Below, piece by piece: positions 1-44,148 of a stretch of DNA of 64,000 bases. Position 1 is the first letter of the stretch. Each line of letters begins with the position of its first letter. The DNA is from Escherichia coli (GTDB lineage: Bacteria > Pseudomonadota > Gammaproteobacteria > Enterobacterales > Enterobacteriaceae). The position numbers and the translations under genes are program-made. The notes beneath the pieces were generated by a model, which was not told the DNA's origin, ran no database searches, and saw only the letters and a program-made list of their open reading frames with translations. The DNA lies in assembly GCF_050920415.1 (NCBI RefSeq), contig NZ_CP169309.1; one strand, 5' to 3'.

Positions 1-41
1 TCGACGGCGGCTTAAGTATGCCGCGCTTCTGAGGCTGAATC

Positions 42-884
42 ATGAGAGATCTGTTACAACGCCCGGATTTATTCAGTATCAATACTGCGACACTGGGCTA
101 TAAAACGCCGCTACCTGCCATTATTGATGCCTGCGCCGCACGCGGTATTGGCGCGATTGCCCCCTGGCGCAGGGAGTTGCAGGGTGAAGATCTCCAGCAA
201 ATCGCCCGCCAGCTTGCTGCCAGTAACATGAGCGTTTCCGGTTTGTGTCGTAGCACCTATTACACCGCGCCGACGCTGACGGAACGCAAACTGGCGATTG
301 ATGATAACCGCCGGGCGCTGGACGACGCCGCTGTACTGAACGCCGCCTGTTATATGCAGGTGGTTGGCGGTCTGCCAATGGGAACAAAAGATCTGTACGA
401 AGCACGGGAACAGGTGAAACAAGGGATTCGCCAGTTGCTGCCACATTCGAAAGAGGTCGGCGTGCCAATTGCACTGGAGCCACTGCACCCGATGACTGCT
501 GCCGATCGTTCTTGTCTGTGCACATTACGTCAGGCGCTGGACTGGTGTGATGAACTCGATCCCGATGGCGAATTTGGCCTCGGCGTGGCGGTAGATGTCT
601 ACCATGTCTGGTGGGACCCGGATCTCGCCAGTCAGATCCTGCGTGCCGGAAAACGCATCCTCGCGTTTCATGTTTCCGACTGGCTGGTGCCAACCACCGA
701 TTTAGTCAATGATCGGGGAATGCCGGGAGATGGCGTCATTAATATTCCCTCTATTCGTCGGCTGGTTGAAAACGCCGGATTTAATGGCGCTATTGAACTG
801 GAAATATTCTCGCCGTACTGGTGGCAGAAAGATATTAACAGCACGCTGGATATTAGCGTCGATCGCATCGCGCATTATTGCTAA
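42..884 (+). CDS. sugar-phosphate isomerase/epimerase-like TIM-barrel protein (xylose-isomerase-like fold), 280 aa
   Basis: ORF 42-884 with GAGG 7 nt upstream of ATG. Motifs such as AFHVSDW and IELEIFSP fit the xylose-isomerase-like TIM barrel family. In-frame stop at 30-32 excludes a longer N-terminus. First gene of a tightly packed plus-strand operon. Confidence 0.7.
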   Translation: MRDLLQRPDLFSINTATLGYKTPLPAIIDACAARGIGAIAPWRRELQGEDLQQIARQLAASNMSVSGLCRSTYYTAPTLTERKLAIDDNRRALDDAAVLNAACYMQVVGGLPMGTKDLYEAREQVKQGIRQLLPHSKEVGVPIALEPLHPMTAADRSCLCTLRQALDWCDELDPDGEFGLGVAVDVYHVWWDPDLASQILRAGKRILAFHVSDWLVPTTDLVNDRGMPGDGVINIPSIRRLVENAGFNGAIELEIFSPYWWQKDINSTLDISVDRIAHYC

Positions 885-893
885 GGAATGATC

Positions 894-1670
894 ATGAGTG
901 ACCAACCCGTTCTGTTCAGCAGAGCGGCGGCTTCCTGCCGCCTGACATTGAACCGTGAAGATAAATGTCATGCTATTAATGAAGAAATGATCGAATCTCT
1001 CGACCATTATTTAAATGAAATTGAAAACGACACCACATTACGATTAGTCGAATTAACGGCAACCGGCGATAAATTCTTTTGTGCGGGCGGCGATATTAAA
1101 TCGTGGTCAGCCTATTCGCCATTAGATATGGGCAGAAAATGGATTAAACGCGGCAATGACGTTTTTAATCGCCTGCGCAATTTACCTCAATTAACGGTTG
1201 CGAATCTCAACGGTCATACTATCGGCGGTGGTATTGAACTTGCCTTGTGCTGCGATATTCGTATTGCCCGCCCCAGTGCGAAATTCTCTAATCCGGAAGT
1301 AATGCTCGGCATGGTGCCTGGCTGGATGGGCATTGAACGCGTGCTTAATCAGGTCGGTCCGGTGGTCGGTCGCCAGATGCTGATGCTGGGTAAACGCCTG
1401 ACGGCGCAGGAAGCTCAGGCGGCGAATTTAATTGATGAAGTGGTAGAAAAAGAACAGGTGGAAAGCTGGATGGCGAATCAGTTAGCGCAGCTGGAAAAAT
1501 GCGGTCCGGTGGCGCTCGCACATATCAAGCAACTGATTCTGGCTCTAGAAAATAAACATGCTGATTACCCGCACCAGTTACTGGCTGGATTAATGTCCGC
1601 CACTCAGGATTGCCAGCAGGCGACGCGCGCATTTGCCGAAAAAAGTAGCGTGAGCTTCCAAAATCAATAA
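894..1670 (+). CDS. enoyl-CoA hydratase/isomerase (crotonase) family protein, about 258 aa
   Basis: Crotonase-fold motifs FCAGGDIKSW and GHTIGGGIELALCCDIRIA. AAGGA at 883-887 sits 6 nt before the ATG at 894; the ORF-track start at 888 would leave no spacer. Confidence 0.72.
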   Translation: MSDQPVLFSRAAASCRLTLNREDKCHAINEEMIESLDHYLNEIENDTTLRLVELTATGDKFFCAGGDIKSWSAYSPLDMGRKWIKRGNDVFNRLRNLPQLTVANLNGHTIGGGIELALCCDIRIARPSAKFSNPEVMLGMVPGWMGIERVLNQVGPVVGRQMLMLGKRLTAQEAQAANLIDEVVEKEQVESWMANQLAQLEKCGPVALAHIKQLILALENKHADYPHQLLAGLMSATQDCQQATRAFAEKSSVSFQNQ

Positions 1671-1679
1671 GGAAATTGT

Positions 1680-3221
1680 ATGCGTAAGATAACAACCGCC
1701 GAGACACTGGCGGCGCAAATTCAGGACGGCGCAACCATTGCCATTAGCGGTAATGGCGGCGGCATGGTGGAAGCGGACCATATTCTGGCTGCTATTGAAG
1801 CGCGTTTCCTGCAAACCGGACACCCGCGCGATCTGACATTAATCCACTCGCTGGGCATTGGCGATCGCGACTGCAAAGGCACTAACCGCTTCGCTCATGC
1901 AGATATGCTCAAACGCATCATTGCCGGACATTTTACCTGGTCGCCCAAGATGCAGGATCTGGTGAAAAACAATGCTATTGAAGCCTACTGCTTCCCTGGT
2001 GGCGTAATTCAGGCACTGCTGCGGGAGATCGGTGCCGGACGTCCAGGGCTTTTTACCCACGTTGGACTGGGATCGTTTGTTGATCCGCGCAACGGCGGCG
2101 GTAAGTCGAACGCCAGCACCACTGAGGATCTGGTAGAACTGATTGAAATCGACGGTGAAACCAAACTTCGTTATCGCCCTTTCAAAGTGGATTACGCGAT
2201 TTTGCGTGGCACTTATGCTGATCCGCGTGGCAACGTCAGCCTCGAAGAAGAGGCGATTGATATGGATAGCTATTCCATGGCGCTGGCAGCACACAACAGC
2301 GGCGGCAAAGTGTTCGTACAGGTGCGCGATGTGCTGGAAGCTGGTGCCATTGAACCACGCCGGGTCAAATTACCGGGCATTCTGGTTGATGGCATCGTTG
2401 AACACCGCGAACAACCACAAACCTATCTTGGCGGTTACGATCTGACCATTAGCGGTCAGCATCGCCGTCTAAGTTCTAACGACGCAATTGAACTGGTTAG
2501 TCATCCGGTGCGCCGCCTGATTGCCCGTCGGGCAGCACGCGAACTGGTAGCTGGCGCTTCAACCAACTTTGGCTTTGGCATTCCCGGCGGCATTCCTGGG
2601 GTTGCACTGCGCGAAGGCGTGCCTTATCAAAGTTTATGGCTGAGCGTCGAGCAAGGCGTGCATAACGGTATGATGCTGGATGATGCTCTGTTCGGCTGCG
2701 CCCGTAACGCCGATGCCATTATTCCATCACTCGATCAATTCGAATTCTACAGTGGCGGAGGGATCGATATCACCTTCCTCGGCATGGGAGAGATGGATCA
2801 GCATGGTAACGTCAACGTCTCCCATCTCAATGGCAATCTCATTGGCCCCGGCGGATTTCTCGAAATTGCGCAAAACGCCCGTAAAGTGGTGTTCTGTGGC
2901 ACGTTCGACGCCAAAGGTAGCAAGATTGATGTAACACCAGATGGCTTGCATATCGCCCAGTCAGGTCAAATCCCTAAACTGGTTACCCAGGTGGAAAAAA
3001 TCACTTTTAGCGCCGCCTACGCACAGCAAAGCGGTCAGGAAGTGTTGTATATCACTGAACGTGCAGTATTCCAGTTAACGGCAGAAGGCGTTGAATTAAT
3101 TGAAATCGCGCCGGGTGTGGAGATTGAACGCGACATTCTGCCGCATATGGCTTTCCGTCCAATTATCAATCAGCCACGCCTGATGGAAAGTAGCCTGTTT
3201 ACGCCGATGGAGGATGCATGA
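1680..3221 (+). CDS. CoA-transferase (family I, acetyl-CoA hydrolase/transferase-like), 513 aa
   Basis: ORF with TAAGGA 6 nt upstream. Size and Gly-rich N-terminal region (ISGNGGGM) resemble YdiF-type acyl-CoA:acetate CoA-transferases. Family call from memory, not searched. Confidence 0.6.
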   Translation: MRKITTAETLAAQIQDGATIAISGNGGGMVEADHILAAIEARFLQTGHPRDLTLIHSLGIGDRDCKGTNRFAHADMLKRIIAGHFTWSPKMQDLVKNNAIEAYCFPGGVIQALLREIGAGRPGLFTHVGLGSFVDPRNGGGKSNASTTEDLVELIEIDGETKLRYRPFKVDYAILRGTYADPRGNVSLEEEAIDMDSYSMALAAHNSGGKVFVQVRDVLEAGAIEPRRVKLPGILVDGIVEHREQPQTYLGGYDLTISGQHRRLSSNDAIELVSHPVRRLIARRAARELVAGASTNFGFGIPGGIPGVALREGVPYQSLWLSVEQGVHNGMMLDDALFGCARNADAIIPSLDQFEFYSGGGIDITFLGMGEMDQHGNVNVSHLNGNLIGPGGFLEIAQNARKVVFCGTFDAKGSKIDVTPDGLHIAQSGQIPKLVTQVEKITFSAAYAQQSGQEVLYITERAVFQLTAEGVELIEIAPGVEIERDILPHMAFRPIINQPRLMESSLFTPMEDA

Positions 3222-5299
3222 GTCAGCTTGATGACACCCTCCTTGATGCGCTGACGCACGTCACTTTCCCGAAGGGTTTTGTGTCAGCAGAGCCAGCGTC
3301 AATTGTCACGGTTGAAGATGTCGATTACCCGATCTGGCAAGTTGATGCGCTAGTCGTTGGTAGCGGCGCGGCAGGGCTGCGCGCAGCGGTTGAACTTAAG
3401 CGCCGCCAGCAAAATGTGCTGATCGCCACCGCCGGGTTATATATGGGGACATCGGCATGTTCTGGTTCCGATAAACAGACGCTGTTTACCGCCGCTACCG
3501 CGGGCAACGGCGATAACTTCGCTAAACTGGCGGAAGCACTGGCGAGCGGTGGGGCGATGGATCACGACACCGCTTATGTCGAAGCGGTAGGTTCTCTGCA
3601 CACTCTTGGCGGGTTGCAATATCTTGGTCTGGAATTACCGGAAGATCGCTATGGCGCAATTCTTCGTTATCAAACCGACCATGACGAAGCCGGGCGAGCA
3701 ACCTCGTGTGGGCCGCGTACTTCTCGCCTAATGGTGAAAGTATTGCTGGAGGAAGTGCAGCGTCTTGCCATACCACTACTGACCAGTGCAACGGTGATTA
3801 AGCTCCTGCATCAGCACGGAGAGAATGGCGAAGATCGCGTTGCGGGGGCTATTCTCGCAACCGGTTCCCGCGCCTATAACCCTTGGGGGCTGGCTATTGT
3901 GACGGCGCCCAATGTGGTACTGGCAACGGGCGGACCGGGCGAGCTTTATCGCGACAGTGTTTATCCACATAAATGCTTCGGCTCGCTGGGGCTGGCGCTG
4001 GAAGAAGGTCTGACGCTAACCAATCTGACCGAAAGCCAGTTTGGTATAGGCACGCCGCGCAGCACGTTTCCGTGGAATTTGTCCGGCACCTATGTACAGG
4101 TGATCCCATATATCTATTCCGTGGATGCCGGGGGCAACGAGTATAACTTCCTCGCAGATTACTATCGCACCACCCAGGAGCTGGCTTCAAACATCTTCCG
4201 TAAAGGCTATCAGTGGCCGTTTCACGCCACACGAGTGATGGATTTTGGCTCCAGCTTGTTAGATATGGCAGTAGCGCAAGAGCAGCAATCAGGGCGTCAG
4301 GTATTTATGGATTTCAATCGCAATCCTGAACCTGTGCCGGGTGACCTGCCGTTCTCATTAGATCGACTGGACGACGACGTTCGCGCGTATCTGGAAAATA
4401 ACGACGCTCTGGCACCATCGCCCATCGAACGACTGCAACGAATGAATCCGCTGTCTATCTCGCTGTATAAGATGCACGGTTACGATCTCACCACGCAGCC
4501 ATTGCAGTTTGCCATGAATAATCAGCATATGAATGGCGGCATTGAAGTGGATATCTGGGGGCAAACCTCCCTGTCCGGCTGTTTCGCCGTGGGGGAAGTT
4601 GCTGGCACACACGGCGTCACTCGCCCTGGTGGTGCGGCATTGAATGCCGGGCAGGTTTTTGCTGTTCGTCTGGCACGTTTTATTGGTTGCACGCAAAAGC
4701 GGTCCGTTGAGGATGATGTCGCGCAGCTAGTAGCCTCACCTCTGCATACAATCAGAGAAGTTATCGCTCAGGCACTGGCAAACGAGAACGGAATGACGCT
4801 GGCAACGGTAAAAGAAAAAATCCAGGCGCGAATGTCTGATTACGCGGGATTTATTTGCCATGCTGATAAAGTTCGTCACGCCGCCCGTGACGCCATGCTG
4901 TTAAATGAATTTGCGCAGCAACATGGTCTAACTATCAACCACGCCGGTGAAATTGCCGAGCTATTTATGTGGCGGCATATGGCATTAACATCCGCTGCGG
5001 TGTTAAGCCAGCTATCACATTATATTGATGCTGGCGGTGGTAGTCGTGGAGCGCGGATGATTATTGATCCACAAGGAGAATATCTTCCACAAACTCGTCG
5101 CGGCGCAATCGAAGATTGGCGTTTTCGCTCTGAACAAGCTGAAGATAAAAATCACAGACTAACTCTCTCCTTTTCACAAGGTTTATTTATTAATGAAATT
5201 AAGTTCTTGAGAAACTTACCGCATATTAAAGGTATTTACTTTGAGAAGAATTGGCCTGATTTTCTTAACGGAACAATTTATCAGACACGGCATGAATAA
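3218..5299 (+). CDS. FAD-dependent oxidoreductase, fumarate-reductase/succinate-dehydrogenase flavoprotein-like fold, 693 aa
   Basis: Start overlaps the upstream stop (ATGA) with GGAGGA RBS. Dinucleotide-binding motif VVGSGAAGLRAAVEL near the N-terminus and an ATGGPGELY segment typical of FAD-binding-2 enzymes. No signal peptide; the last ~250 aa are not recognisable. Confidence 0.62.
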   Translation: MSQLDDTLLDALTHVTFPKGFVSAEPASIVTVEDVDYPIWQVDALVVGSGAAGLRAAVELKRRQQNVLIATAGLYMGTSACSGSDKQTLFTAATAGNGDNFAKLAEALASGGAMDHDTAYVEAVGSLHTLGGLQYLGLELPEDRYGAILRYQTDHDEAGRATSCGPRTSRLMVKVLLEEVQRLAIPLLTSATVIKLLHQHGENGEDRVAGAILATGSRAYNPWGLAIVTAPNVVLATGGPGELYRDSVYPHKCFGSLGLALEEGLTLTNLTESQFGIGTPRSTFPWNLSGTYVQVIPYIYSVDAGGNEYNFLADYYRTTQELASNIFRKGYQWPFHATRVMDFGSSLLDMAVAQEQQSGRQVFMDFNRNPEPVPGDLPFSLDRLDDDVRAYLENNDALAPSPIERLQRMNPLSISLYKMHGYDLTTQPLQFAMNNQHMNGGIEVDIWGQTSLSGCFAVGEVAGTHGVTRPGGAALNAGQVFAVRLARFIGCTQKRSVEDDVAQLVASPLHTIREVIAQALANENGMTLATVKEKIQARMSDYAGFICHADKVRHAARDAMLLNEFAQQHGLTINHAGEIAELFMWRHMALTSAAVLSQLSHYIDAGGGSRGARMIIDPQGEYLPQTRRGAIEDWRFRSEQAEDKNHRLTLSFSQGLFINEIKFLRNLPHIKGIYFEKNWPDFLNGTIYQTRHE

Positions 5300-5319
5300 T
5301 ATTGCAAAGGTTAATCACT

Positions 5320-5796
5320 ATGCGAAATATAATCAGATCTATTAATTCATTGCTTTCCACATTGAACATTACCATTTTGGCAATTATTGTGATGTGCGTT
5401 ACATGGCAAGTAGTAGCACGATTTATCTTTAAAAGCCCCAGCATTTTTACAGATGAACTTAGTCGTTTACTATTTATTTGTCTTGGACTTTTTGGTGGTG
5501 CTTATACTGCCGGACAAAACCGACATCTGGCCATTGATCTTCTGCCAATGATGCTAAAAGGAAAATCCCGACGTTATTTATTCTTATGTATTCAGGCCAT
5601 TGTTATTCTTTTTGCCTCTATCATTATGGTTTATGGTGGCGGGTTATTAACACTGGACACATTTGATTCAGGGCAAACTTCTCCGGCTTTAGGCTGGCAG
5701 ATGGGATATATTTACATGAGCATTCCAATAAGTGGCATCCTTATTATTATATACACCATAGATACAGTTTTAACCGAACTTAAACAACCACTCTAA
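5320..5796 (+). CDS. TRAP transporter small permease (DctQ-like), about 158 aa
   Basis: Small hydrophobic multi-TM protein immediately upstream of DctM-like and DctP-like genes. ATG at 5320 with AAAGG 9 nt upstream is preferred over the TTG at 5302. AT-rich coding sequence. Confidence 0.6.
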   Translation: MRNIIRSINSLLSTLNITILAIIVMCVTWQVVARFIFKSPSIFTDELSRLLFICLGLFGGAYTAGQNRHLAIDLLPMMLKGKSRRYLFLCIQAIVILFASIIMVYGGGLLTLDTFDSGQTSPALGWQMGYIYMSIPISGILIIIYTIDTVLTELKQPL

Positions 5797-5818
5797 AATA
5801 AGTAGGGATGGAGAAAAC

Positions 5819-7120
5819 ATGGATTACTGGTTACCGATCATTGTGTTATTTGGTGCTTTCTTTTTTATGTTGGCATTAGGTGTTCCTATTGTCTATGCTA
5901 TTGGTTTATCAACACTGGCATCAATTACTACACAACTCGATTTCAACTCAGCGTTAAGTGTGGTTTCCCAAAAGTTAGCCTCCGGGTTAGATAGTTTTAC
6001 GTTGTTGGCAATCCCATTTTTTATTTTGTCTGGCAACATTATGAATCACGGAGGAATAGCGCGACGATTAATCAACTTTGCCCGAATTCTCGGCGGTCGT
6101 CTGCCAGGCTCACTTGCCCACTGTAATATTCTTGCCAATATGCTGTTCGGGGCAATTTCTGGTTCAGCCGTGGCTTCGGCGGCTGCGATGGGCGGCGTCA
6201 TGCATCCGCAACAGGTTAAAGAGGGCTACGACCCGGCATTCAGTACTGCAGTTAACGTTGCCTCTGCCCCGACGGGTTTGCTTATTCCACCCAGTAATAC
6301 GTTAATCGTCTATTCACTGGTCAGTGGTGGTACTTCTATTGCCGCACTGTTCCTGGCAGGATATGTCCCGGGAATTTTATTGGGCCTGGCGCTGATGACT
6401 GTGGCTGGTATTATCGCGGTACGCCGGGGTTATCCAAAACCAGAACGTCCGACTTTGCGCCAGGCTGGAGTGGCAATATGGATGGCGATCCCCAGTATTT
6501 TCCTGATTGTATTAATTATGGGTGGTGTACTAAGCGGTATTTTTACCCCGACAGAAGCATCTGCAATTGCGGTAATTTATACCCTTTTCCTTGCACTGGT
6601 TCTTTATCGTGAAATATCAGTTAAAGATTTACCTAAGATATTTCTGGAGTCCGTCATTACCACTGCAATTGTCTTGTTGTTAATTGGTTCTTCAATGGGA
6701 ATGTCATGGGCAATGTCAAACGCTGACGTTCCCTTCCTGATTCTCGATTTGCTTAACACTATTTCTGACAATCCAATAATCATCCTGCTTATTATCAATA
6801 TTATCCTGTTGATTATCGGCACATTTATGGATATGACACCGGCAGTACTGATTTTTACGCCGATATTTTTACCCGTTGTCACCGAACTGGGTATGGACCC
6901 GATTCACTTTGGTATTGTCATGGTACTGAACATGTGTATCGGTATTTGTACTCCGCCTGTAGGCAGTGTGTTATTTGTCGGTTGTAGTGTATCTAAATTA
7001 CCGATTAATAAAATTATCAAACCTATGCTGCCATTCTATGCCGTGATGGTATTGGTGCTGGCAATGGTTACCTATATTCCGCAAATCAGTATGGCATTGC
7101 CAAGAGCACTGGGCTACTGA
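5819..7120 (+). CDS. TRAP transporter large permease (DctM-like), 433 aa
   Basis: 433-aa polytopic membrane protein with the size and hydrophobicity pattern of DctM-family permeases. GGATGGAG RBS; positioned between Q-like and P-like genes. Confidence 0.7.
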   Translation: MDYWLPIIVLFGAFFFMLALGVPIVYAIGLSTLASITTQLDFNSALSVVSQKLASGLDSFTLLAIPFFILSGNIMNHGGIARRLINFARILGGRLPGSLAHCNILANMLFGAISGSAVASAAAMGGVMHPQQVKEGYDPAFSTAVNVASAPTGLLIPPSNTLIVYSLVSGGTSIAALFLAGYVPGILLGLALMTVAGIIAVRRGYPKPERPTLRQAGVAIWMAIPSIFLIVLIMGGVLSGIFTPTEASAIAVIYTLFLALVLYREISVKDLPKIFLESVITTAIVLLLIGSSMGMSWAMSNADVPFLILDLLNTISDNPIIILLIINIILLIIGTFMDMTPAVLIFTPIFLPVVTELGMDPIHFGIVMVLNMCIGICTPPVGSVLFVGCSVSKLPINKIIKPMLPFYAVMVLVLAMVTYIPQISMALPRALGY

Positions 7121-7172
7121 TATGCATTAACTGGCGGCACCTGCCGCCATATTTATTAGAAAAGGAACATCT

Positions 7173-8144
7173 ATGAAAATAAAAGTATCCGCTGGCATTA
7201 TCGGTGCTGTTCTTATGCTATCCGCAAGCCAGTCCTGGGCAGTAACATTAAAACTTAGCCATAATCAGGATAAATCTCATCCTGTTCATAAAGCGATGGA
7301 GTTCTTTGCGAAAAAGAGCAAAGAGTACTCTAACGGTGATATTACTATTCGTATTTATCCAAATGGAACATTGGGTACTCAACGAGAAACAATGGAGCTG
7401 ATTCGTTCTGGTGCTATTCCGCTGGTAAAAACCAATGCGGCGGAGATGGAAGCCTTCGAGAGTTCGTATAAAATATTTAGCCTGCCTTATTTGTTCCGCG
7501 ATCGTGATCATTATTATCAGGTCATGCAAGGCGATATCGGAAGGAAAATCCTCGACTCAACGAAAAGCAAAGGTTATTTCGGGCTGACTTTCTATGATGG
7601 AGGCGCCCGCAGTTTCTACGGTAATAAACCGGTACTGAAACCAGACGATCTGAAAGGCATGAAAGTCCGTGTCCAGCCAAGTCCTGGCGCAGTTGAAATG
7701 ATCAAAGTCATGGGCGGTAACCCGACGCCACTGGATTACGGCGAGCTGTATACGGCCTTACAGCAGGGCGTGGTCGATATGGCAGAAAACAGCGTGATGG
7801 CACTGACCACTATGCGTCACGGTGAAGTGGCAAAATCCTTTAGCCTTGATGAGCACACCATGGTGCCCGATGTGGTTCTGATGAGTAATGCTGCATTTGA
7901 TAAACTCAGCCCTGAAAATCAGGCAGTTATATTAAAAGCAGCGAAAGAATCGATGAGTTACATGAAGGAGTTATGGAGCGAGCAAGAGAAACAAGAATTT
8001 GCAAAACTGGATAAAATGGGCGTAAAAGTCTACCCGGTTGATAAAGCACCGTTTATCGAGAAAGTACAACCGATGTACGCAAACTTCGCTAAAGATAACC
8101 CTGCCCTTGCCCCAATGCTGGCTGATATTCAGGCGGCTAAGTAA
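7173..8144 (+). CDS. TRAP transporter periplasmic substrate-binding protein (DctP-like), 323 aa
   Basis: N-terminal signal peptide (MKIKVSAGIIGAVLMLSASQSWA), size typical of DctP-family binding proteins, AAAGGA RBS. Last gene of the operon, convergent with rplI. Confidence 0.7.
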   Translation: MKIKVSAGIIGAVLMLSASQSWAVTLKLSHNQDKSHPVHKAMEFFAKKSKEYSNGDITIRIYPNGTLGTQRETMELIRSGAIPLVKTNAAEMEAFESSYKIFSLPYLFRDRDHYYQVMQGDIGRKILDSTKSKGYFGLTFYDGGARSFYGNKPVLKPDDLKGMKVRVQPSPGAVEMIKVMGGNPTPLDYGELYTALQQGVVDMAENSVMALTTMRHGEVAKSFSLDEHTMVPDVVLMSNAAFDKLSPENQAVILKAAKESMSYMKELWSEQEKQEFAKLDKMGVKVYPVDKAPFIEKVQPMYANFAKDNPALAPMLADIQAAK

Positions 8145-8201
8145 TTACCTTCATGGGGCTGCTTATTGTGGCCCTTATCGATATCAGCAAGTGCTCGCTA
8201 T

Positions 8202-8236
8202 AAAAGCAAAACGCCGACCAATGGTCGGCGTTTTTA
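8202..8236. terminator. bidirectional rho-independent terminator between the TRAP operon and rplI
   Basis: Perfect 8-bp stem CGCCGACC/GGTCGGCG (8212-8219 and 8223-8230), flanked by an A-run at 8202-8211 and TTTTT at 8231-8235. Confidence 0.8.
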
Positions 8237-21820: not shown

Positions 21821-22459
21821 TTAGCCTCCCCAGTGCCCACGGGCGCTGGAAGAACGACCATAGCCGCCGCGAGAAACAGTTGACGCTTTTCTGGTGGTAA
21901 AGCCGCCCGAGGAGTAAGACTCTTTTTTGCCAGAACCGGAGCGCCAGGAGTAATCACCGGAAGTATTGCGCCAGACGGGGCGGGAAGCAAATGAGGATCC
22001 ACCGCTGTTATAAACGAACGGCTCATCGCGATCTTTACGAATAACCCGGCTTAATAAAAATCCAGAAATGACCGGGATCCAACTCTGTTCAACATTGTCG
22101 TAGTAGCAATTTTCGTACTTAGACTGACAATTCTGCTGAGTCATATTCTTCGGAACATCGGCATAAAATGCCGCTTTGGCATTGTTCCAGCCATGAGCAC
22201 AGATATCTGAATTATTACCGTCATCAATACAATCCTGCACTGTCGAGTAAAACGTTCCGTCACCGTCGTTATCGACATCACCACTATCGCCACAACCTTT
22301 CAATACAAAAAAAGCTGCACCGCCCATTAGCGCCAACGTTAAGTATTTTTGTGCGTAGCGATTGCGTCGCGGCTCAAAAGGATTATTAGGTCTTCCAATG
22401 CGACTGATCGCTCCGTGACCAATTTTACTGTTATTTCTTGATTTGCGTTTTCTGGCCAT
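21821..22459 (-). CDS. yjfM: DUF1190-family protein YjfM
   Basis: 212-aa ORF, Gly/Ser-rich C-terminal half; 2-nt gap to yjfC. Confidence 0.9.
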   Translation of the reverse strand: MARKRKSRNNSKIGHGAISRIGRPNNPFEPRRNRYAQKYLTLALMGGAAFFVLKGCGDSGDVDNDGDGTFYSTVQDCIDDGNNSDICAHGWNNAKAAFYADVPKNMTQQNCQSKYENCYYDNVEQSWIPVISGFLLSRVIRKDRDEPFVYNSGGSSFASRPVWRNTSGDYSWRSGSGKKESYSSGGFTTRKASTVSRGGYGRSSSARGHWGG

Positions 22460-22468
22460 GATCGTCCA

Positions 22469-22867
22469 TTACCATGTCATACAAGCTGCGTTAAAAATAC
22501 CGCCAGCCAGCGCGGCGGTTCCCATAAACATTCCTGCTGCGGTATTGTGATTAATAATTTTTTCGCTTAATGCTGGCATATAAAGTCTGACGCCAGCAAA
22601 AACGAGTAACTGAATCACCAGTGCGATCCCGCCCCAGGCAAAATAATCCGGAATACTCACCGCATTGATTGCCGCACTAGATAATGGGATCACGTAACCC
22701 AACAATGTACCACTGAACGCCAGTGCCGCCGCGGTATTATTGTTTTTAATTAACTGCCATTCGTTGTGCGGTGTAATTTTGGAGTAGATAAACAGAAAAA
22801 TAATCACCATAGCCACGCCAATAAAAAAATAGGCGCTAAAGGCAAGAAGTGAATCCAGTATATGCAT
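22469..22867 (-). CDS. yjfL: DUF350-family inner-membrane protein YjfL
   Basis: 132-aa hydrophobic ORF MHILDSLLAFSAYFFIGVAMVIIFLFIYSKITPHNEW... Confidence 0.9.
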   Translation of the reverse strand: MHILDSLLAFSAYFFIGVAMVIIFLFIYSKITPHNEWQLIKNNNTAAALAFSGTLLGYVIPLSSAAINAVSIPDYFAWGGIALVIQLLVFAGVRLYMPALSEKIINHNTAAGMFMGTAALAGGIFNAACMTW

Positions 22868-22884
22868 CGTAAACGTCCTTGTAA

Positions 22885-23544
22885 TTAACCAATAATATGA
22901 AGTGATGTCAGTGGGATATCAACACCCAGTGCGCGCGAAAATAACCACTCCGGCTCGCCGAGATCGTTAAAAGATTCCTCACCATTTAACAGCAAATATT
23001 CACAGGTATCTTCGGTCACCTGCCGTTCATAGCCCATGGTAAAATTATGCACTTCCCATTTGGCGTGGTTTTGATTTTCAACTTTTTCCAGCATATAGAC
23101 GGGTTCGATATTCCCCGGTTCTTCGCTGTTAAAAAATCGCTGCCAGCGTTTTTCCTGCCAGTTTAATGTCATTGCCCCCATCGCTTTGGCGTTGATCGCT
23201 TCGCGCCAGTGGCTCTCTTTGCTGATACCGTAGCTCTCTTCATAGACAAAGAGCTTTATATCATCAATGTCATCAATATCTTCGCCGCCGGTGGTATTGA
23301 TTTGCAGAAATTCATCGCCCGAAGTGTAGTAGCGGAAAATCTGACTACCGCCGCCCAGATCGATGTGGCTGACAGCGGCTACCGTAAATTCTTCACCCGG
23401 CAGCGCAATCAGCAATTCATCTTCCAGCAAACGAAACGCTAACGTGTCGAGCGTAAAGCCGCTATTGAGATGAAGTCCCAGCGGGCCACGTGCGGTTACA
23501 GGTTTATCATCCTTACCAAACAGACGCTTGAAAAAACTTGTCAT
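22885..23544 (-). CDS. yjfK: DUF2491-family protein YjfK
   Basis: 219-aa translation MTSFFKRLFGKDDKPVTARGPLGLHLNSGF...; start ATG overlaps the stop of the upstream channel-like gene (ATGA) with GAGGGAAG RBS. Confidence 0.9.
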   Translation of the reverse strand: MTSFFKRLFGKDDKPVTARGPLGLHLNSGFTLDTLAFRLLEDELLIALPGEEFTVAAVSHIDLGGGSQIFRYYTSGDEFLQINTTGGEDIDDIDDIKLFVYEESYGISKESHWREAINAKAMGAMTLNWQEKRWQRFFNSEEPGNIEPVYMLEKVENQNHAKWEVHNFTMGYERQVTEDTCEYLLLNGEESFNDLGEPEWLFSRALGVDIPLTSLHIIG

Positions 23545-24611
23545 ATGCTTCCCTCAATGTCCTGCCATACCACTTCTTCAGCCAAAATACGGTTATTGCC
23601 AATAAGATGCAGCCACATACCGCCTTTAACTTCCGTTGCAATGACTGGATTCAGTTCCATTCCCCTACCATTTTTACAACTGCTTATTCCCAGGACGGTG
23701 GCATCATGATGAAGTTTCATATAATGCATCAATGCGCCATAACGCATCGAGGTAACCCGTTCAGGAATCGGTAAAACAAACCCCGTATCCCCCAGCATTG
23801 GATTCATAATCGATGCCACTGATTGAGATGAACCGGGATCTTGTATTGAACGGGAAAGTTGTTCTGCTGAAATATTTCGCACTATTTCAATACGTTGACA
23901 ATGAACCTCTAATAAACGAGCGTAGCGTTCATCTTCCAGATAAGCGACGATATGGCATCTTTCAGGAATAAAATCCGCCAGGGATAGTGCGGTCGTGAAC
24001 GTCTGCTCATCTGTTTGCGAAAAGATGATGACACTTTGGCAATTTGCCAGTCCCATGCGGGTATGTTCATGCGGATCATTAAAATTACTAATACGAATGA
24101 AATCGACCCAATTATTTCCAGGCATCGGATGTTGAATATCATCCCGCTCACACAAAAGTACCCGGCCAAATGCTCTTCGGGAATCAAACAACAATAATGA
24201 AATCATCTTTTCAGTCTGATGCCCGCGCCATCCAATGACCAGCATATGGTTGCGCAAATTGCTGTAGTCGCCCATTCCCGTCATTCCTTTCGCCAATATG
24301 TCTTGCACTAATGCAATGACTTTTCCCATTAAAGCGCCAAATAAACCAACACTCACAGGAATCTGCCAGAGCGCTGTGAACAGACGTCCCCCAACCGTTT
24401 GGGGTGTGATATCACCAAACCCCAGCGTTGATCCCACAACCGAGCAGTAATAAATAAAATTACTCAGTTGACCTACCAACGCCTCTTCATGCAACGCAGT
24501 TAACACCAGATAACAAAACAGATACTGTCCTGTAAATAATCCAGTCAATGCCGGCCAGGTAAGCCTGGAAAGGTGACGTCGGCAGGTTTTAATGATCCAG
24601 GAGAAGAACAT
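23541..24611 (-). CDS. putative 2-TM potassium-channel-like protein with a C-terminal RCK/TrkA-N-like domain, 356 aa; not in the K-12 gene order as I recall it
   Basis: Uninterrupted 1071-nt ORF between yjfJ and yjfK. Contains TM1 (residues ~21-45), a pore helix and K+-selectivity-filter-like TLGFGD (residues 62-67, nt 24411-24428), TM2 (~74-100), then a Rossmann-like HMLVIGWRGHQ... segment. Start overlaps the yjfJ stop (TAATG) and stop overlaps the yjfK start (ATGA). Appears AT-richer than its neighbours. Confidence 0.75.
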   Translation of the reverse strand: MFFSWIIKTCRRHLSRLTWPALTGLFTGQYLFCYLVLTALHEEALVGQLSNFIYYCSVVGSTLGFGDITPQTVGGRLFTALWQIPVSVGLFGALMGKVIALVQDILAKGMTGMGDYSNLRNHMLVIGWRGHQTEKMISLLLFDSRRAFGRVLLCERDDIQHPMPGNNWVDFIRISNFNDPHEHTRMGLANCQSVIIFSQTDEQTFTTALSLADFIPERCHIVAYLEDERYARLLEVHCQRIEIVRNISAEQLSRSIQDPGSSQSVASIMNPMLGDTGFVLPIPERVTSMRYGALMHYMKLHHDATVLGISSCKNGRGMELNPVIATEVKGGMWLHLIGNNRILAEEVVWQDIEGSI

Positions 24612-25309
24612 TACTCGCCCTGTTGGCGTTGCAGTCTTGCTAATACATCCTGGGCGCTACTTTTGTTGCTACCGCCAATTCCGGCTTCCGCCAGTTTTTC
24701 ATCAAGATCGCGACCATCTGCCACTTTTTCCAGCTGTGCGGCAGCATCCAGGCGAGCTTGACGTTCGGCCTGACGCGTTTGCAGACGCTTTAAGGATTCT
24801 GCCGCTGTCGAAACGCTGGAAGATGCGCCAACAGTAGAGGTCGTTACGGCCTGTTGTGCACGCTGCATGGCTTCAGTAGCTTTAACGACTTCCATTTGTT
24901 GCTCAAATTGAGCGATACGCTGTGCTGTCGCTGTAACCGCTTTTTCCACACCATCGCGAGAGACCTCCAGATTCGACAACACTTGCTCTTCAGCGGTAAT
25001 GAGATTCTCAAGACGGGCGATTTCTTCAGCAACTTCGTTAATCAACGACGGATTAACATTCTTGCTTAACGCTTCCAGCGCGCGAGCTTCCAGACTGGCT
25101 TTACGCTCACGTAAATCTTTCAGTTTATCGTTGCTCAATTTCACTCTTGCCAGTAGATCGACACGTGATTTACCGGCCTTATCCAGTTCTGCTTTGGCAT
25201 CGCGTATATGCTGTTCAAGCATTCTAACGCCCTGTGCTTCTTCAATGGATTCTTCCGCTTGCGAGATCACCGATTTACCCAGCGTAAATAAAGTTTTTAA
25301 AATTCCCAT
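24611..25309 (-). CDS. yjfJ: PspA/IM30-family protein YjfJ
   Basis: 232-aa coiled-coil-rich translation MGILKTLFTLGKSVISQAEESIEEAQGVRMLEQHIRDAKAELD... characteristic of the PspA/Vipp1 family. Confidence 0.93.
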   Translation of the reverse strand: MGILKTLFTLGKSVISQAEESIEEAQGVRMLEQHIRDAKAELDKAGKSRVDLLARVKLSNDKLKDLRERKASLEARALEALSKNVNPSLINEVAEEIARLENLITAEEQVLSNLEVSRDGVEKAVTATAQRIAQFEQQMEVVKATEAMQRAQQAVTTSTVGASSSVSTAAESLKRLQTRQAERQARLDAAAQLEKVADGRDLDEKLAEAGIGGSNKSSAQDVLARLQRQQGE

Positions 25310-25327
25310 AAATACCTGTCCTTGTAA

Positions 25328-25729
25328 TTAGTGTGAATATTCTTCTGTAATTTCAGCAAGATCCAAAGCGTTATCTACCAGCGTGGTTATTTCCAGCAGG
25401 ATATCTTCAAGAGAAGATTTAAGCGATAACGCCCCGAAAACAATGTAATACTCTTCCTCTTGCACGCTGGAGATCCCTACCGATGACAACGGCATCATCT
25501 TCTGATTTCTTAATAAGAAGGTATTAAATTCATCTGGATTGCTGATACTACTTACCGGACAAATAAAGGTTTCGATAATCATTTGGCGGGAAGTAAAAAG
25601 AATATTGATTTGCAAATCGCCATAATCATTCATTTTAATAATTAATGCGTTTTCATTATTTGTTATATCAATATTTTGTTCAGGTACAGTTTGCAGCGCC
25701 GTCGCCAGCGCCAACGGATTCCATGTCAT
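25328..25729 (-). CDS. yjfI: DUF2170-family protein YjfI
   Basis: 133-aa ORF MTWNPLALATALQTVPEQNIDITNNENALIIK...; first gene of the yjfI-yjfC operon, with an AT-rich promoter region upstream (25730-25808). Confidence 0.9.
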   Translation of the reverse strand: MTWNPLALATALQTVPEQNIDITNNENALIIKMNDYGDLQINILFTSRQMIIETFICPVSSISNPDEFNTFLLRNQKMMPLSSVGISSVQEEEYYIVFGALSLKSSLEDILLEITTLVDNALDLAEITEEYSH

Positions 25730-41798: not shown

Positions 41799-42936
41799 GT
41801 CAGAGCCCCTCGATCTCAATCAGTTAGCGCAAAAAATTAAACAGTGGGGGCTGGAACTGGGCTTTCAGCAGGTAGGTATTACCGATACCGATCTCAGCGC
41901 GTCCGAGCCCAAACTGCAAGCATGGCTGGACAAACAATACCACGGCGAAATGGACTGGATGGCGCGTCACGGTATGCTGCGCGCTCGCCCCCATGAGTTA
42001 TTGCCTGGTACGCTGCGCGTCATCAGCGTGCGGATGAATTACCTTCCTGCTAACGCCGCATTTGCCAGCACGCTGAAAAACCCCAAACTCGGCTATGTAA
42101 GTCGTTATGCGTTGGGCCGTGACTATCACAAACTTCTGCGCAACCGACTCAAAAAGCTGGGCGAGATGATTCAGCAACATTGTGTTTCGCTGAATTTTAG
42201 ACCGTTTGTCGATTCTGCGCCTATTCTCGAGCGCCCGTTAGCTGAAAAAGCAGGTCTTGGCTGGACAGGTAAGCACTCACTTATCCTCAATCGCGAGGCC
42301 GGTTCGTTCTTCTTTTTAGGTGAATTACTGGTCGATATTCCGCTGCCCGTGGATCAACCGGTCGAGGAAGGATGCGGTAAATGCGTGGCCTGTATGACGA
42401 TTTGCCCGACCGGCGCCATCGTCGAGCCATATACCGTCGATGCTCGCCGCTGTATCTCTTATCTCACCATTGAACTGGAAGGGGCGATCCCGGAAGAGCT
42501 GCGTCCATTGATGGGAAACCGTATTTACGGTTGCGATGACTGCCAGCTTATCTGCCCGTGGAATCGCTATTCGCAACTCACTAAAGAAGACGATTTCAGC
42601 CCGCGCAAACCACTACACGCACCGGAACTCATTGAGTTATTCGCCTGGAGTGAAGAGAAGTTTTTAAAAGTCACGGAAGGTTCGGCGATTCGCCGTATAG
42701 GTCACCTGCGTTGGCTGCGTAATATCGCCGTGGCATTAGGCAATGCCCCCTGGGATAAAACGATTTTGACAGCGCTGGAAAGTCGTAAAGGTGAGCACCC
42801 ACTTCTTGATGAGCACATAGCGTGGGCGATTGCGCAGCAAATCGAGAGGCGAAATGCGTGCGTCGTAGAGGTACAACTACCGAAAAAACAGCGTCTGGTT
42901 CGGGTGATTGAAAAAGGGTTACCGCGTGACGCCTGA
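41797..42936 (+). CDS. queG: epoxyqueuosine reductase QueG
   Basis: 379-aa product starting MSEPLDLNQLAQKIKQWGLELGF... with 4Fe-4S Cys motifs (CGKCVACMTICP, CDDCQLICPWN); ATG at 41797 is divergent from nnr and overlaps its start codon. Confidence 0.93.
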
Positions 42937-43205
42937 TTCATCCACAGCTTGTGAATAAAAATAAAAACGCATTGCAATTCAAGGCGAATAAAATCGTCAA
43001 GTGATCGACTCGACAAAACGAGATCTTAATTTTCAACCTATATATCAATAAGTTAAAAAAATACTATTCACCGTGCGAAGTTTCTTTGAAATTAAGATTA
43101 CGACATGAGGCTGTGGATAACTCTGTTTACAAGAGTTTGTCAGAGACAACAAAAACCAGCAATAACGCATCGCGTCGCTGTGGATATTTTATTGAGAGAA
43201 GAATT

Positions 43206-43281
<76 letters not shown>

Positions 43282-43316
43282 TTGGGTGGTCTGTGCTTTG
43301 CAGCACTTTCAAATTT

Positions 43317-43392
<76 letters not shown>

Positions 43393-43449
43393 GTACTGCT
43401 TAATTTTGCTTTCGTAATTTTCGCATTTCTGCGTCGTTACGGGAGGCGC

Positions 43450-43477
43450 ATTATACGAGAAATCTTTCCCTCTGCAA
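43450..43477 (-). promoter_or_regulatory. candidate sigma70 promoter of the tRNA-Gly operon
   Basis: On the minus strand, TTGCAG (43472-43477), a 16-nt spacer, then a perfect TATAAT (43450-43455) followed by a GC-rich discriminator (GCGCCTCCC); an A/T tract lies upstream. Confidence 0.55.
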
Positions 43478-43602
43478 CCCCCCTAAAAAAATTTTTTTGA
43501 GTTTTTATCTCAAGTGCTGAAATTATCAGCAAGACGTTCAATTTAGCGTCAAAATCACGCCGCCGCAAGTGGATTCCGGCGCTTACGTGACCAGGAAAAA
43601 TT

Positions 43603-44148
43603 TTACAGCTTGATAAAATGCTCGCGGTAGTAAGCCAGTTCTGCCACCGACTCACGGATATCATCCATCGCCTGATGCGTCCCCTGCTTGGTAAAGCCGT
43701 CAAGAATTTCCGGCTTCCAGCGGCGCGCCAGCTCTTTCAGTGTGCTGACATCCAGATAACGGTAGTGGAAGTAGGCTTCCAGCTCCGGCATGTATTTAAA
43801 CAGGAAGCGACGATCCTGGCCGATGCTGTTACCGCAAATCGGCGATTTTCCCGCAGGCACCCACTGTTTTAAGAATTCGAGCGTTGCCAGTTCAGCTTCA
43901 CGATCGCCCATTGTGCTCGCTTTCACGCGCTCCACCAGCCCGCTGGCGGTATGGGTGCGCACGTTCCAGTCATCCATCAGCGCCAGCTGTTCATCAGACT
44001 GGTGTACTGCAATGGTCGGCCCTTCTGCCAGAATATTCAGGTTGGCATCGGTCACCAGCGTGGCAATCTCAATAATGCGATCGCGCTCGGGATCCAGACC
44101 GGTCATCTCAAGATCGATCCAAATCAGGTTGTTTTCATTGGCACTCAT
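43603..44148 (-). CDS. orn: oligoribonuclease
   Basis: 181-aa product starting [29 protein letters not shown]... at the ATG at 44148; the ORF-track extension is rejected. Confidence 0.95.

Follow-up and report, generated by a model that had tools for sequence, protein, structure and literature searches.

Escherichia coli K-12 possesses one tripartite ATP-independent periplasmic (TRAP) transporter, the 2,3-diketo-L-gulonate system YiaMNO, which is specified by three genes arranged in the order small membrane subunit (Q), large membrane subunit (M) and substrate-binding protein (P) within a catabolic operon. Hexuronate-type TRAP systems, which are found with the uxa/uxu clusters of Vibrionaceae, represent a second described group. 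The uptake of sialic acid is, in different bacteria, a function of the major facilitator superfamily (MFS) carrier NanT, of the TRAP system SiaPQM or of ATP-binding cassette (ABC) systems. Here, we describe a Q-M-P gene trio of E. coli located within a chromosomal stretch of 64,000 nucleotides (nt; contig NZ_CP169309.1), hereafter referred to as the window, in which it forms the end of a nine-gene accessory operon, or island, between ytfB and rplI. The trio resembles YiaMNO in its gene number, its gene order and its position within a catabolic operon of the same species, but it occupies a different locus, the island being absent from K-12. It is proposed that the segment from approximately position 5281 to 8200 probably represents an exchangeable TRAP module at the 3′ end of a conserved enterobacterial operon, the same position being occupied by a single MFS gene in sister species.

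Alternation of TRAP and MFS genes at one site

The island comprises, in order, a divergently oriented TetR-type regulator gene, genes for a short-chain dehydrogenase/reductase (SDR), a TIM-barrel isomerase, an enoyl-coenzyme A (CoA) hydratase, a CoA-transferase and a flavin adenine dinucleotide (FAD)-dependent oxidoreductase, and finally Q, M and P. The features on which the following comparison rests are these:

3218 to 5299, + strand: FAD-dependent oxidoreductase gene, 693 amino acids (aa), the last enzyme gene (Pfam FAD_binding_2)
5281 to 8200, + strand: TRAP cassette, with an MFS gene in its place in sister species, as delimited by homology breakpoints
5320 to 5796, + strand: Q, TRAP small membrane subunit of the DctQ family, 158 aa (PF04290, E = 3e-31, 131 of 132 profile positions)
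5797 to 5818, + strand: Q-M spacer, 22 nt in the window and 42 nt in the common E. coli allele, which carries a 20-nt insertion (by alignment)
5819 to 7120, + strand: M, TRAP large membrane subunit of the DctM family, 433 aa (PF06808, E = 5e-119, full length)
7173 to 8144, + strand: P, TRAP substrate-binding protein of the DctP family, 323 aa (PF03480, E = 2e-84)

According to these Pfam assignments, all three subunits of a DctPQM-type TRAP transporter are present as separate genes, with M also matching TIGR00786 (461 bits against a cut-off of 268) and P matching both TIGR00787 and NF037995 above their cut-offs. The Q-M-P order, with the binding-protein gene last, had been recognized in an earlier reading made from the sequence alone (here, the sequence-only reading) and was borne out by the DctQ, DctM and DctP matches; it is ordinary, since yiaM-yiaN-yiaO of K-12 has the same order. 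Against the YiaN model, M scored 290 bits (E = 3e-86), below the cut-off of 800 bits, which identifies it as a paralogue rather than an orthologue. The N terminus of P, MKIKVSAGIIGAVLMLSASQSWA, resembles a signal peptide ending in SWA, as judged by eye, while its KVRVQ motif aligns with KIRVQ of 4ovr, R166 being a candidate for the carboxylate-clamping arginine by analogy with Arg147 of SiaP. The solved chains closest to P are 4ovr, 4x8r and 4n8y (PDB matches, E = 1e-69 to 6e-73), among which 4x8r binds glucuronate and 4n8y binds galacturonate (PMC11668362).

Related loci were reached through protein searches and contig look-ups; an exact-peptide contig scan with P yielded just four loci and missed diverged orthologues. 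The protein search with P identified orthologues of 76 to 86% identity in a few lineages, the next matches (Vibrio, Psychromonas, Photobacterium, Morganella, Providencia and others) being at most 60% identical. The corresponding search with the FAD oxidoreductase returned proteins of 76 to 92% identity in Escherichia marmotae, Escherichia albertii, Salmonella enterica, Klebsiella oxytoca, Klebsiella grimontii and Citrobacter tructae, and none of these host taxa was among the matches of the P search. At the same site, and alongside the same enzymes, a single MFS gene of ~425 aa replaces Q-M-P in Salmonella (locus L018), K. oxytoca (L019), E. marmotae (L023), E. albertii (L024) and one form of E. 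coli (L017). The MFS-type arrangement is rare in E. coli, being present in 2 of 5426 complete genomes, and in L017 no enoyl-CoA hydratase gene was called and the MFS gene is followed by one for a MaoC-like dehydratase. Q-M-P is also present at the ytfB-rplI site in Klebsiella huaxiensis (L010) and in two further enterobacterial lineages (L013 and L016), and TRAP and MFS versions are thus both found within Escherichia and within Klebsiella. The MFS genes are themselves of two types, sharing approximately 50% identity, one in Escherichia (L017, L023 and L024) and the other in Salmonella and K. oxytoca (L018 and L019), and their best model match is the D-galactonate-transporter subfamily TIGR00893, below its cut-off. 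From their respective relatives, both kinds of module therefore point to a sugar-acid-like carboxylate, which fits functionally equivalent, interchangeable cassettes.

The junctions of the exchanged segment are sharp. Alignment of the window with E. marmotae and E. albertii extends over positions 1 to 5280 at 89 to 90% identity and resumes at 8199 to 8203, the left breakpoint lying 20 nt before the stop codon of the FAD-oxidoreductase gene and the right one just ahead of the rplI terminator. An equivalent comparison of K. huaxiensis with K. oxytoca showed homology that stops 235 nt before the oxidoreductase stop codon and is regained at the 3′ end of the gene that follows (breakpoints at 7810 and 11049 of L010). 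Homology with K-12 resumes at window position 8203, the same right junction. The sequence-only reading had suggested comparison with homologous operons, and it was this comparison that revealed an MFS gene in place of Q-M-P in the same enzyme operon, the exchanged segment coinciding almost exactly with the interval (5320 to 8144) which that reading had singled out.

The borders of the island as a whole are common to the MFS-type loci and to the K-12 deletion variant. In K-12, the pseudogene ytfA (MG1655 4427694-4428095; L027) matches the 3′ part of the TetR gene (L001 4382-4784), a 102-nt SDR fragment is retained (L001 5330-5431), and yjfZ stands where the operon would be; the operon thus appears, from these remnants, to have been lost in K-12 rather than never to have been present. 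Such remnants bear on the alternative that the whole nine-gene island was recently acquired by E. coli through horizontal transfer, with the change in GC content reflecting heterogeneity of the donor. This explanation accords with the accessory status of the island, whose TRAP genes are carried by 1480 of 5426 complete E. coli genomes, and with the unusual divergence of its alleles (92 to 94% identity across the operon). However, Salmonella, Klebsiella, E. albertii and E. marmotae have this site occupied as well, and the annotation between ytfB and rplI includes no integrase, insertion sequence (IS) element, transposase or tRNA gene, so that recent acquisition of the island, already contradicted by synteny and by the K-12 remnants, is considered highly improbable.

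Separate histories of transporter and enzyme genes are also indicated by their divergence. In comparisons across genera, the synonymous sites of the TRAP genes have reached saturation (proportion of synonymous differences, pS, 0.74 to 0.83), whereas the adjacent enzyme genes are less diverged; between L016 and L010, for example, the CoA-transferase gene shows a synonymous divergence (dS) of 0.42, while Q, M and P are saturated. A recent passage of the TRAP genes from one enterobacterial genus to another was rejected, since this saturation holds between all TRAP-type lineages. A distant operon is found on a Logan contig from an organism of 63.5% GC (L012); its enzymes are 41 to 62% and its TRAP proteins 63 to 86% identical to those of E. 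coli (M, 86%; P, 76%). That locus (L012 10001-20134) contains a MaoC-like dehydratase gene, the same enzyme set and Q-M, with P inverted and convergent and terminator-like hairpins on both sides.

Within E. coli, two allele classes were distinguished. The window allele is of a rare type, 18 of the 1480 carrier genomes being at least 95% identical to it over the TRAP genes, and it shares 52 to 86% DNA identity with the common allele (L003 and L004) over positions 4650 to 5830 (L003 7650-8850), whereas the rest of the operon is 94 to 100% identical between the two classes. Q shows a dS of 0.92 between them, and both classes are equally AT-rich. At the 3′ end of its oxidoreductase gene, the window resembles the MFS-type alleles of Escherichia more closely than it does the common TRAP-type allele, which makes the junction region itself a patchwork of recombined segments. 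A mosaic origin of the operon, as put forward in the sequence-only reading on the basis of composition, is accordingly upheld chiefly by the MFS/TRAP alternation at one site and by the discordant synonymous divergence, the composition alone being ambiguous.

Base composition and the origin of the cassette

The TRAP genes had been judged by eye to be AT-richer than the four enzyme genes upstream, a difference which is confirmed by the per-gene values of GC content and of GC content at third codon positions (GC3). Q, with a GC content of 0.367 and a GC3 of 0.31, is the most AT-rich gene in the window, followed in the cassette by M (0.443 and 0.43) and P (0.452 and 0.46), while the four enzyme genes range from 0.485 to 0.546 in GC content and from 0.49 to 0.57 in GC3. 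Across the cassette, GC content is 0.432, against 0.534 for positions 1 to 4650. In addition, TRAP genes are AT-richer than enzyme genes in L010, L013 and L016, and they lag behind the enzyme genes in every enterobacterial host, by approximately 4 to 19 points in total GC and 4 to 28 points in GC3.

It might be argued that this low GC content is not historical, but a consequence of membrane-protein composition, of weak codon bias under low expression or of a local bias, mutational or selective, at the 3′ end of the operon, in which the TRAP genes would always have resided. GC1 and GC2 (GC content at first and second codon positions) are indeed low in Q and M, as expected for hydrophobic proteins. 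To account for protein composition, the amino-acid content of each gene was combined with the codon usage of 39 core genes of the window to obtain an expected GC3. Relative to this expectation, the deficit is -0.29 for Q, -0.17 for M and -0.095 for P, compared with -0.01 to -0.08 for the enzyme genes; because the deficit persists after the correction, the difference in composition is not an artefact of hydrophobic residues, and the highest GC3 of the window belongs to a membrane gene, ulaA. The corrected values of the 39 core genes have a standard deviation of 0.074 and a minimum of -0.178, such that only Q falls outside their range, M lies at its edge, and P, overall within it, is low just in its first third; GC3 is near normal in the central part of M and over the remaining two-thirds of P. 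Low GC3 is also seen elsewhere in the window: the yjfM-yjfI block (21821-25729), which is annotated as core and includes a potassium-channel-family gene (23541-24611), shows deficits of -0.09 to -0.18, almost the size of that of M, and a foreign origin can therefore not be diagnosed in this window from low GC3 alone.

Several further observations weigh against the exchange of a foreign module as the source of the low GC content, and in favor of a non-historical cause. The AT-rich tract does not begin with the cassette but ~630 nt upstream of its junction, in the MFS-type loci too: it starts within the FAD-oxidoreductase gene at ~4650 and deepens from ~5100 (deficits of -0.17 over 4651 to 5125 and of -0.24 over 5126 to 5296), the 3′ part of this gene (~4651 to 5280) having a GC content of 0.449 and being hypervariable. 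A drop in GC3 over the last 69 codons of the oxidoreductase gene is common to the 10 loci compared, irrespective of the cassette type, and the MFS genes are likewise somewhat AT-richer than the enzyme genes, with a smaller drop. Furthermore, the GC3 of the TRAP genes follows the GC content of the host (0.31 to 0.46 in E. coli, 0.60 to 0.70 in L013 and ~0.8 in L012), and a gene-specific or position-specific bias could therefore contribute. In L012, the enzyme genes and Q-M occur together without a step in GC content, which implies that the association of TRAP and enzyme genes may be old. Composition is thus no proof of foreign origin by itself, and the data fit a replacement of MFS by TRAP genes or the reverse, no donor having been identified. 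As a full explanation, however, a non-historical cause is unlikely: it is largely refuted by the alternation of unrelated transporters in the same slot of sister taxa, with sharp breakpoints and discordant synonymous divergence, and the corrected deficit places Q beyond every core gene. Because the synonymous sites of the TRAP genes are saturated, a simple recent import that has yet to equilibrate does not suffice, and there must be a contribution from a local or gene-specific bias or from repeated import out of a pool of AT-richer alleles.

We retain the exchangeable-module model, according to which a TRAP module of the sugar-acid type, drawn from a gene pool richer in AT, would have displaced, or been displaced by, an MFS carrier, the exchange presumably having occurred through recombination in the flanks rather than by means of a mobile element. 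Both module types would import the same carboxylate substrate. Q, M and P would be cotranscribed with the enzyme genes from a TetR-controlled promoter, and P, following its predicted export to the periplasm, would capture the carboxylate and deliver it to the QM membrane unit, with the imported acid then being processed by the CoA-transferase, FAD-oxidoreductase, hydratase, SDR and TIM-barrel enzymes. A broader proposal, which we advance with considerably more reserve and regard as possible, is that the 3′ end of the operon constitutes a standing site of cassette exchange for at least three modules (the TRAP Q-M-P trio and two MFS types) within Escherichia and Klebsiella, in which recombination would use the AT-rich, fast-evolving last 200 to 600 nt of the FAD-oxidoreductase gene as its left arm and the region of the rplI terminator as its right arm, and that the enzyme set encodes an undescribed CoA-dependent route for a sugar-acid-like or carbocyclic carboxylate.

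The hairpin ahead of the binding-protein gene

The 52-nt spacer between M and P harbors three features:

7132 to 7149, + strand: stem-loop TGGCGGC-ACCT-GCCGCCA in the M-P spacer (terminator-like scan)
7150 to 7159, + strand: interrupted U-rich tail TATTTATTAG, after the stem
7162 to 7166, + strand: Shine-Dalgarno-like AAGGA, 6 nt ahead of the P start codon (read from the sequence), common to E. coli and L016

In the sequence-only reading, a 6-bp GC stem had been placed at about 7133 to 7148 of this gap; the hairpin and the length of the spacer were corroborated, while the stem was found to extend to 7 bp, including six GC pairs, around a 4-nt ACCT loop. Its predicted free energy is -14.1 kcal/mol (z = -4.3 relative to shuffled sequences). 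Perfect 7-bp stems with at least six GC pairs occur at four places in the 64-kb window, the other three being gene-end terminators with clean U-tracts, and a random Markov model predicts ~2.75 such stems per 64 kb and ~0.002 for the M-P spacer. The hairpin is thus real, unlikely to be due to chance and terminator-like. Its tail, UAUUUAUUAG, has six U residues among its first eight nucleotides but is interrupted (UAUUUAUU) and scores 2.62, against 3.9 and 4.7 for two gene-end terminators of the window, and the composite terminator score of approximately +6 is marginal. The hairpin is situated within the operon, 23 nt ahead of the P start codon, and not at the end of a transcription unit.

All E. 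coli or E. coli-like sequences examined, nine from genome collections and twelve metagenome contigs, contain the hairpin. Among them, L015, an E. coli assembly with fragmented genes that appear to represent assembly errors or decay, was used for the spacer only, and the complete genomes of strains 504211 and B7A were selected as the most divergent at the M-P spacer. The loop varies among E. coli alleles (ACCT, TCCT or ATCT), as does the 5′ flank. No compensatory change or covariation in the stem was found within E. coli; strains 504211 and B7A and 3 of the 12 metagenome contigs carry an uncompensated G-to-A change in the 5′ arm, which leaves a 5-bp stem of -9.4 kcal/mol. One of the 14 stem positions is variable, compared with 4 of 34 flanking positions, and this gives no evidence of constraint. 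Beyond E. coli, the hairpin is absent from the M-P spacers of L010, L013 and L016, which fold at -1.3 to -4.7 kcal/mol, and a metagenome DNA scan around the P ribosome-binding site returned E. coli-like sequences only, with no new lineage for covariation. In E. coli cS76a, an IS1A element (L022 3069-3865) is inserted right after the hairpin (~7153 of the window), between M and the P ribosome-binding site, presumably uncoupling P from the operon.

These data do not sustain the earlier suggestion of a processing or stability element, the hairpin being absent from the three TRAP-type orthologous loci outside E. coli, an outcome which the sequence-only reading had itself named as contradicting its proposal. 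A functional RNA element setting the ratio of P to the membrane subunits, be it a signal for RNase processing or for stability or a regulated attenuator, would explain why so strong and locally improbable a structure lies in the only sizeable spacer of the cassette, why it is kept in all E. coli alleles despite the differences in loop and 5′ flank, and why the remaining stems of its class in the window are all terminators. It is nevertheless doubtful, given the absence from K. huaxiensis, L013 and L016, the lack of compensatory pairs, the uncompensated G-to-A change, the lack of evidence for constraint on the stem, the interrupted U-tract and the marginal terminator score, together with an Rfam search which returned only sub-threshold chance matches, none of them at the hairpin.

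A role at the DNA level was also considered, in which the 18-bp sequence TGGCGGCACCTGCCGCCA would be a protein-binding site such as a TetR operator or part of an internal P promoter. TGGCGGCACCTGCCGCCA is a perfect palindrome in the window allele, and its variation is mostly central, as is common for operators. However, the TetR-SDR divergent promoter region just upstream of the window start contains no similar palindrome and carries instead the inverted repeat ATCAACCA-N6-TGGTTGAT (L001 5152-5173), which is a candidate operator for the TetR regulator; moreover, orthologous loci in which the same TetR gene is retained lack TGGCGGCACCTGCCGCCA, and the G-to-A change breaks its symmetry. The TetR-operator assignment was rejected owing to the different palindrome of the promoter region, as was an internal sigma-70 promoter for P, there being no sigma-70-like site in or beside the spacer, and protein binding at TGGCGGCACCTGCCGCCA is thus regarded as having very little probability. 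A repetitive extragenic palindromic (REP) or bacterial interspersed mosaic element (BIME) repeat was likewise rejected: the hairpin is its own only zero-mismatch match in the window, and a 116-nt spacer query matched a median of one place per genome among 1461 genomes.

In our reading, the hairpin would have arisen in the E. coli lineage as a stem-loop of weak terminator form, and would not be part of the conserved design of the cassette. Its effect, if any, would most likely be partial termination or a protected 3′ end of a transcript ending after M. Such an effect has a point against it, as a terminator ahead of P would reduce the level of P compared with QM, whereas binding protein is usually needed in excess.

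The enzyme operon and known transport systems

The gene table and coordinates are those of the E. coli MFDS1022581 record NZ_CP169399.1, which is 100% identical to the first 8.3 kb of the window and in which Q, M and P carry the annotations small permease, large permease and substrate-binding protein of a TRAP transporter. The remaining enzyme genes of the window and the terminator of the operon are located as follows:

42 to 884: xylose-isomerase-like TIM-barrel protein gene (annotated record)
894 to 1670: enoyl-CoA hydratase gene (annotated record)
1680 to 3221: CoA-transferase gene (annotated record)
8208 to 8234, no strand assigned: bidirectional terminator hairpin AAAACGCCGACC-AAT-GGTCGGCGTTTT between P and the convergent rplI (terminator scan)

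This operon-end terminator, which is shared with rplI, lies just beyond the right junction of the cassette and is kept in all loci compared. Farther along the window, genes beyond ~43.7 kb (orn, rsgA, psd and mscM) show a shifted codon-position GC pattern with the coordinates of NZ_CP169399.1, which suggests that the two sequences differ by an insertion or deletion close to the tRNA-Gly genes (window ~42900-43750).

The domains expected of the enzyme genes were borne out by Pfam, while NCBIfam provided generic names only for the enzymes and no specific functional name for any protein of the operon. The SDR upstream of the window is annotated as 3-ketoacyl-acyl carrier protein (ACP)-reductase-like, and the FAD oxidoreductase is an FrdA/NadB-like flavoprotein, for which a PDB sequence search returned no relative at E ≤ 1e-10. 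No assigned pathway for the enzyme set was found in libraries or the literature, and the searchable literature yielded no description of this island or of a TRAP/MFS swap at this locus. It may be speculated that the enzymes act on a sugar-acid-like or carbocyclic carboxylate in a manner akin to beta-oxidation; a substrate of the quinate/shikimate type is equally a matter of speculation.

The cassette swap is a new, well-delimited example of a known phenomenon. It provides a clean natural case in which one catabolic operon is combined with unrelated uptake systems in sister species and within a species, which is useful for the study of transporter recruitment and swapping and cautions against inferring substrate or ancestry from the transporter gene alone. 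Moreover, two independent hints, one from each transporter type, indicate a sugar-acid-like carboxylate as the substrate of an operon present in about a quarter of complete E. coli genomes, and the K-12 pseudogene ytfA is explained as a remnant of the TetR regulator of this operon. The hairpin adds little, being a lineage-specific feature without evidence of function.

With respect to described systems, the spacer sets the cassette apart from YiaMNO, the yiaN-yiaO spacer being 12 nt long and without a hairpin. The hairpin itself shares with intrinsic terminators a GC-rich 7-bp stem, a 4-nt loop and a U-rich stretch, but differs from them in its intraoperonic position before a needed transporter gene, its interrupted U-tract, its lack of conservation and its weakening by a common variant. 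The closest relatives of the TRAP proteins outside the operon are those of the hexuronate-type systems, as illustrated by an Aliivibrio contig of 42.5% GC (L007), whose P and M are 55% and 68% identical to those described here and on which UxaC, UxuA, a mannitol-dehydrogenase-family gene, a PfkB kinase and a 2-keto-3-deoxy-6-phosphogluconate (KDPG) aldolase surround P and QM, as is classical for hexuronate utilization. Hexuronate-type genes are arranged as P-Q-M or, as in this Aliivibrio locus, with P divergent from QM, in contrast to the Q-M-P order described here, and their UxaC/UxuA-type neighbors contrast with the CoA-transferase, hydratase and FAD oxidoreductase of the present operon. The sialic acid transporters, as a case of non-orthologous transporter displacement, offer the nearest parallel to the swap, in that one pathway is likewise served by unrelated transporter families; in the present case, a TRAP system alternates with two MFS types in one slot, and it does so within genera (Escherichia and Klebsiella), at one fixed site and with junctions that can be mapped.

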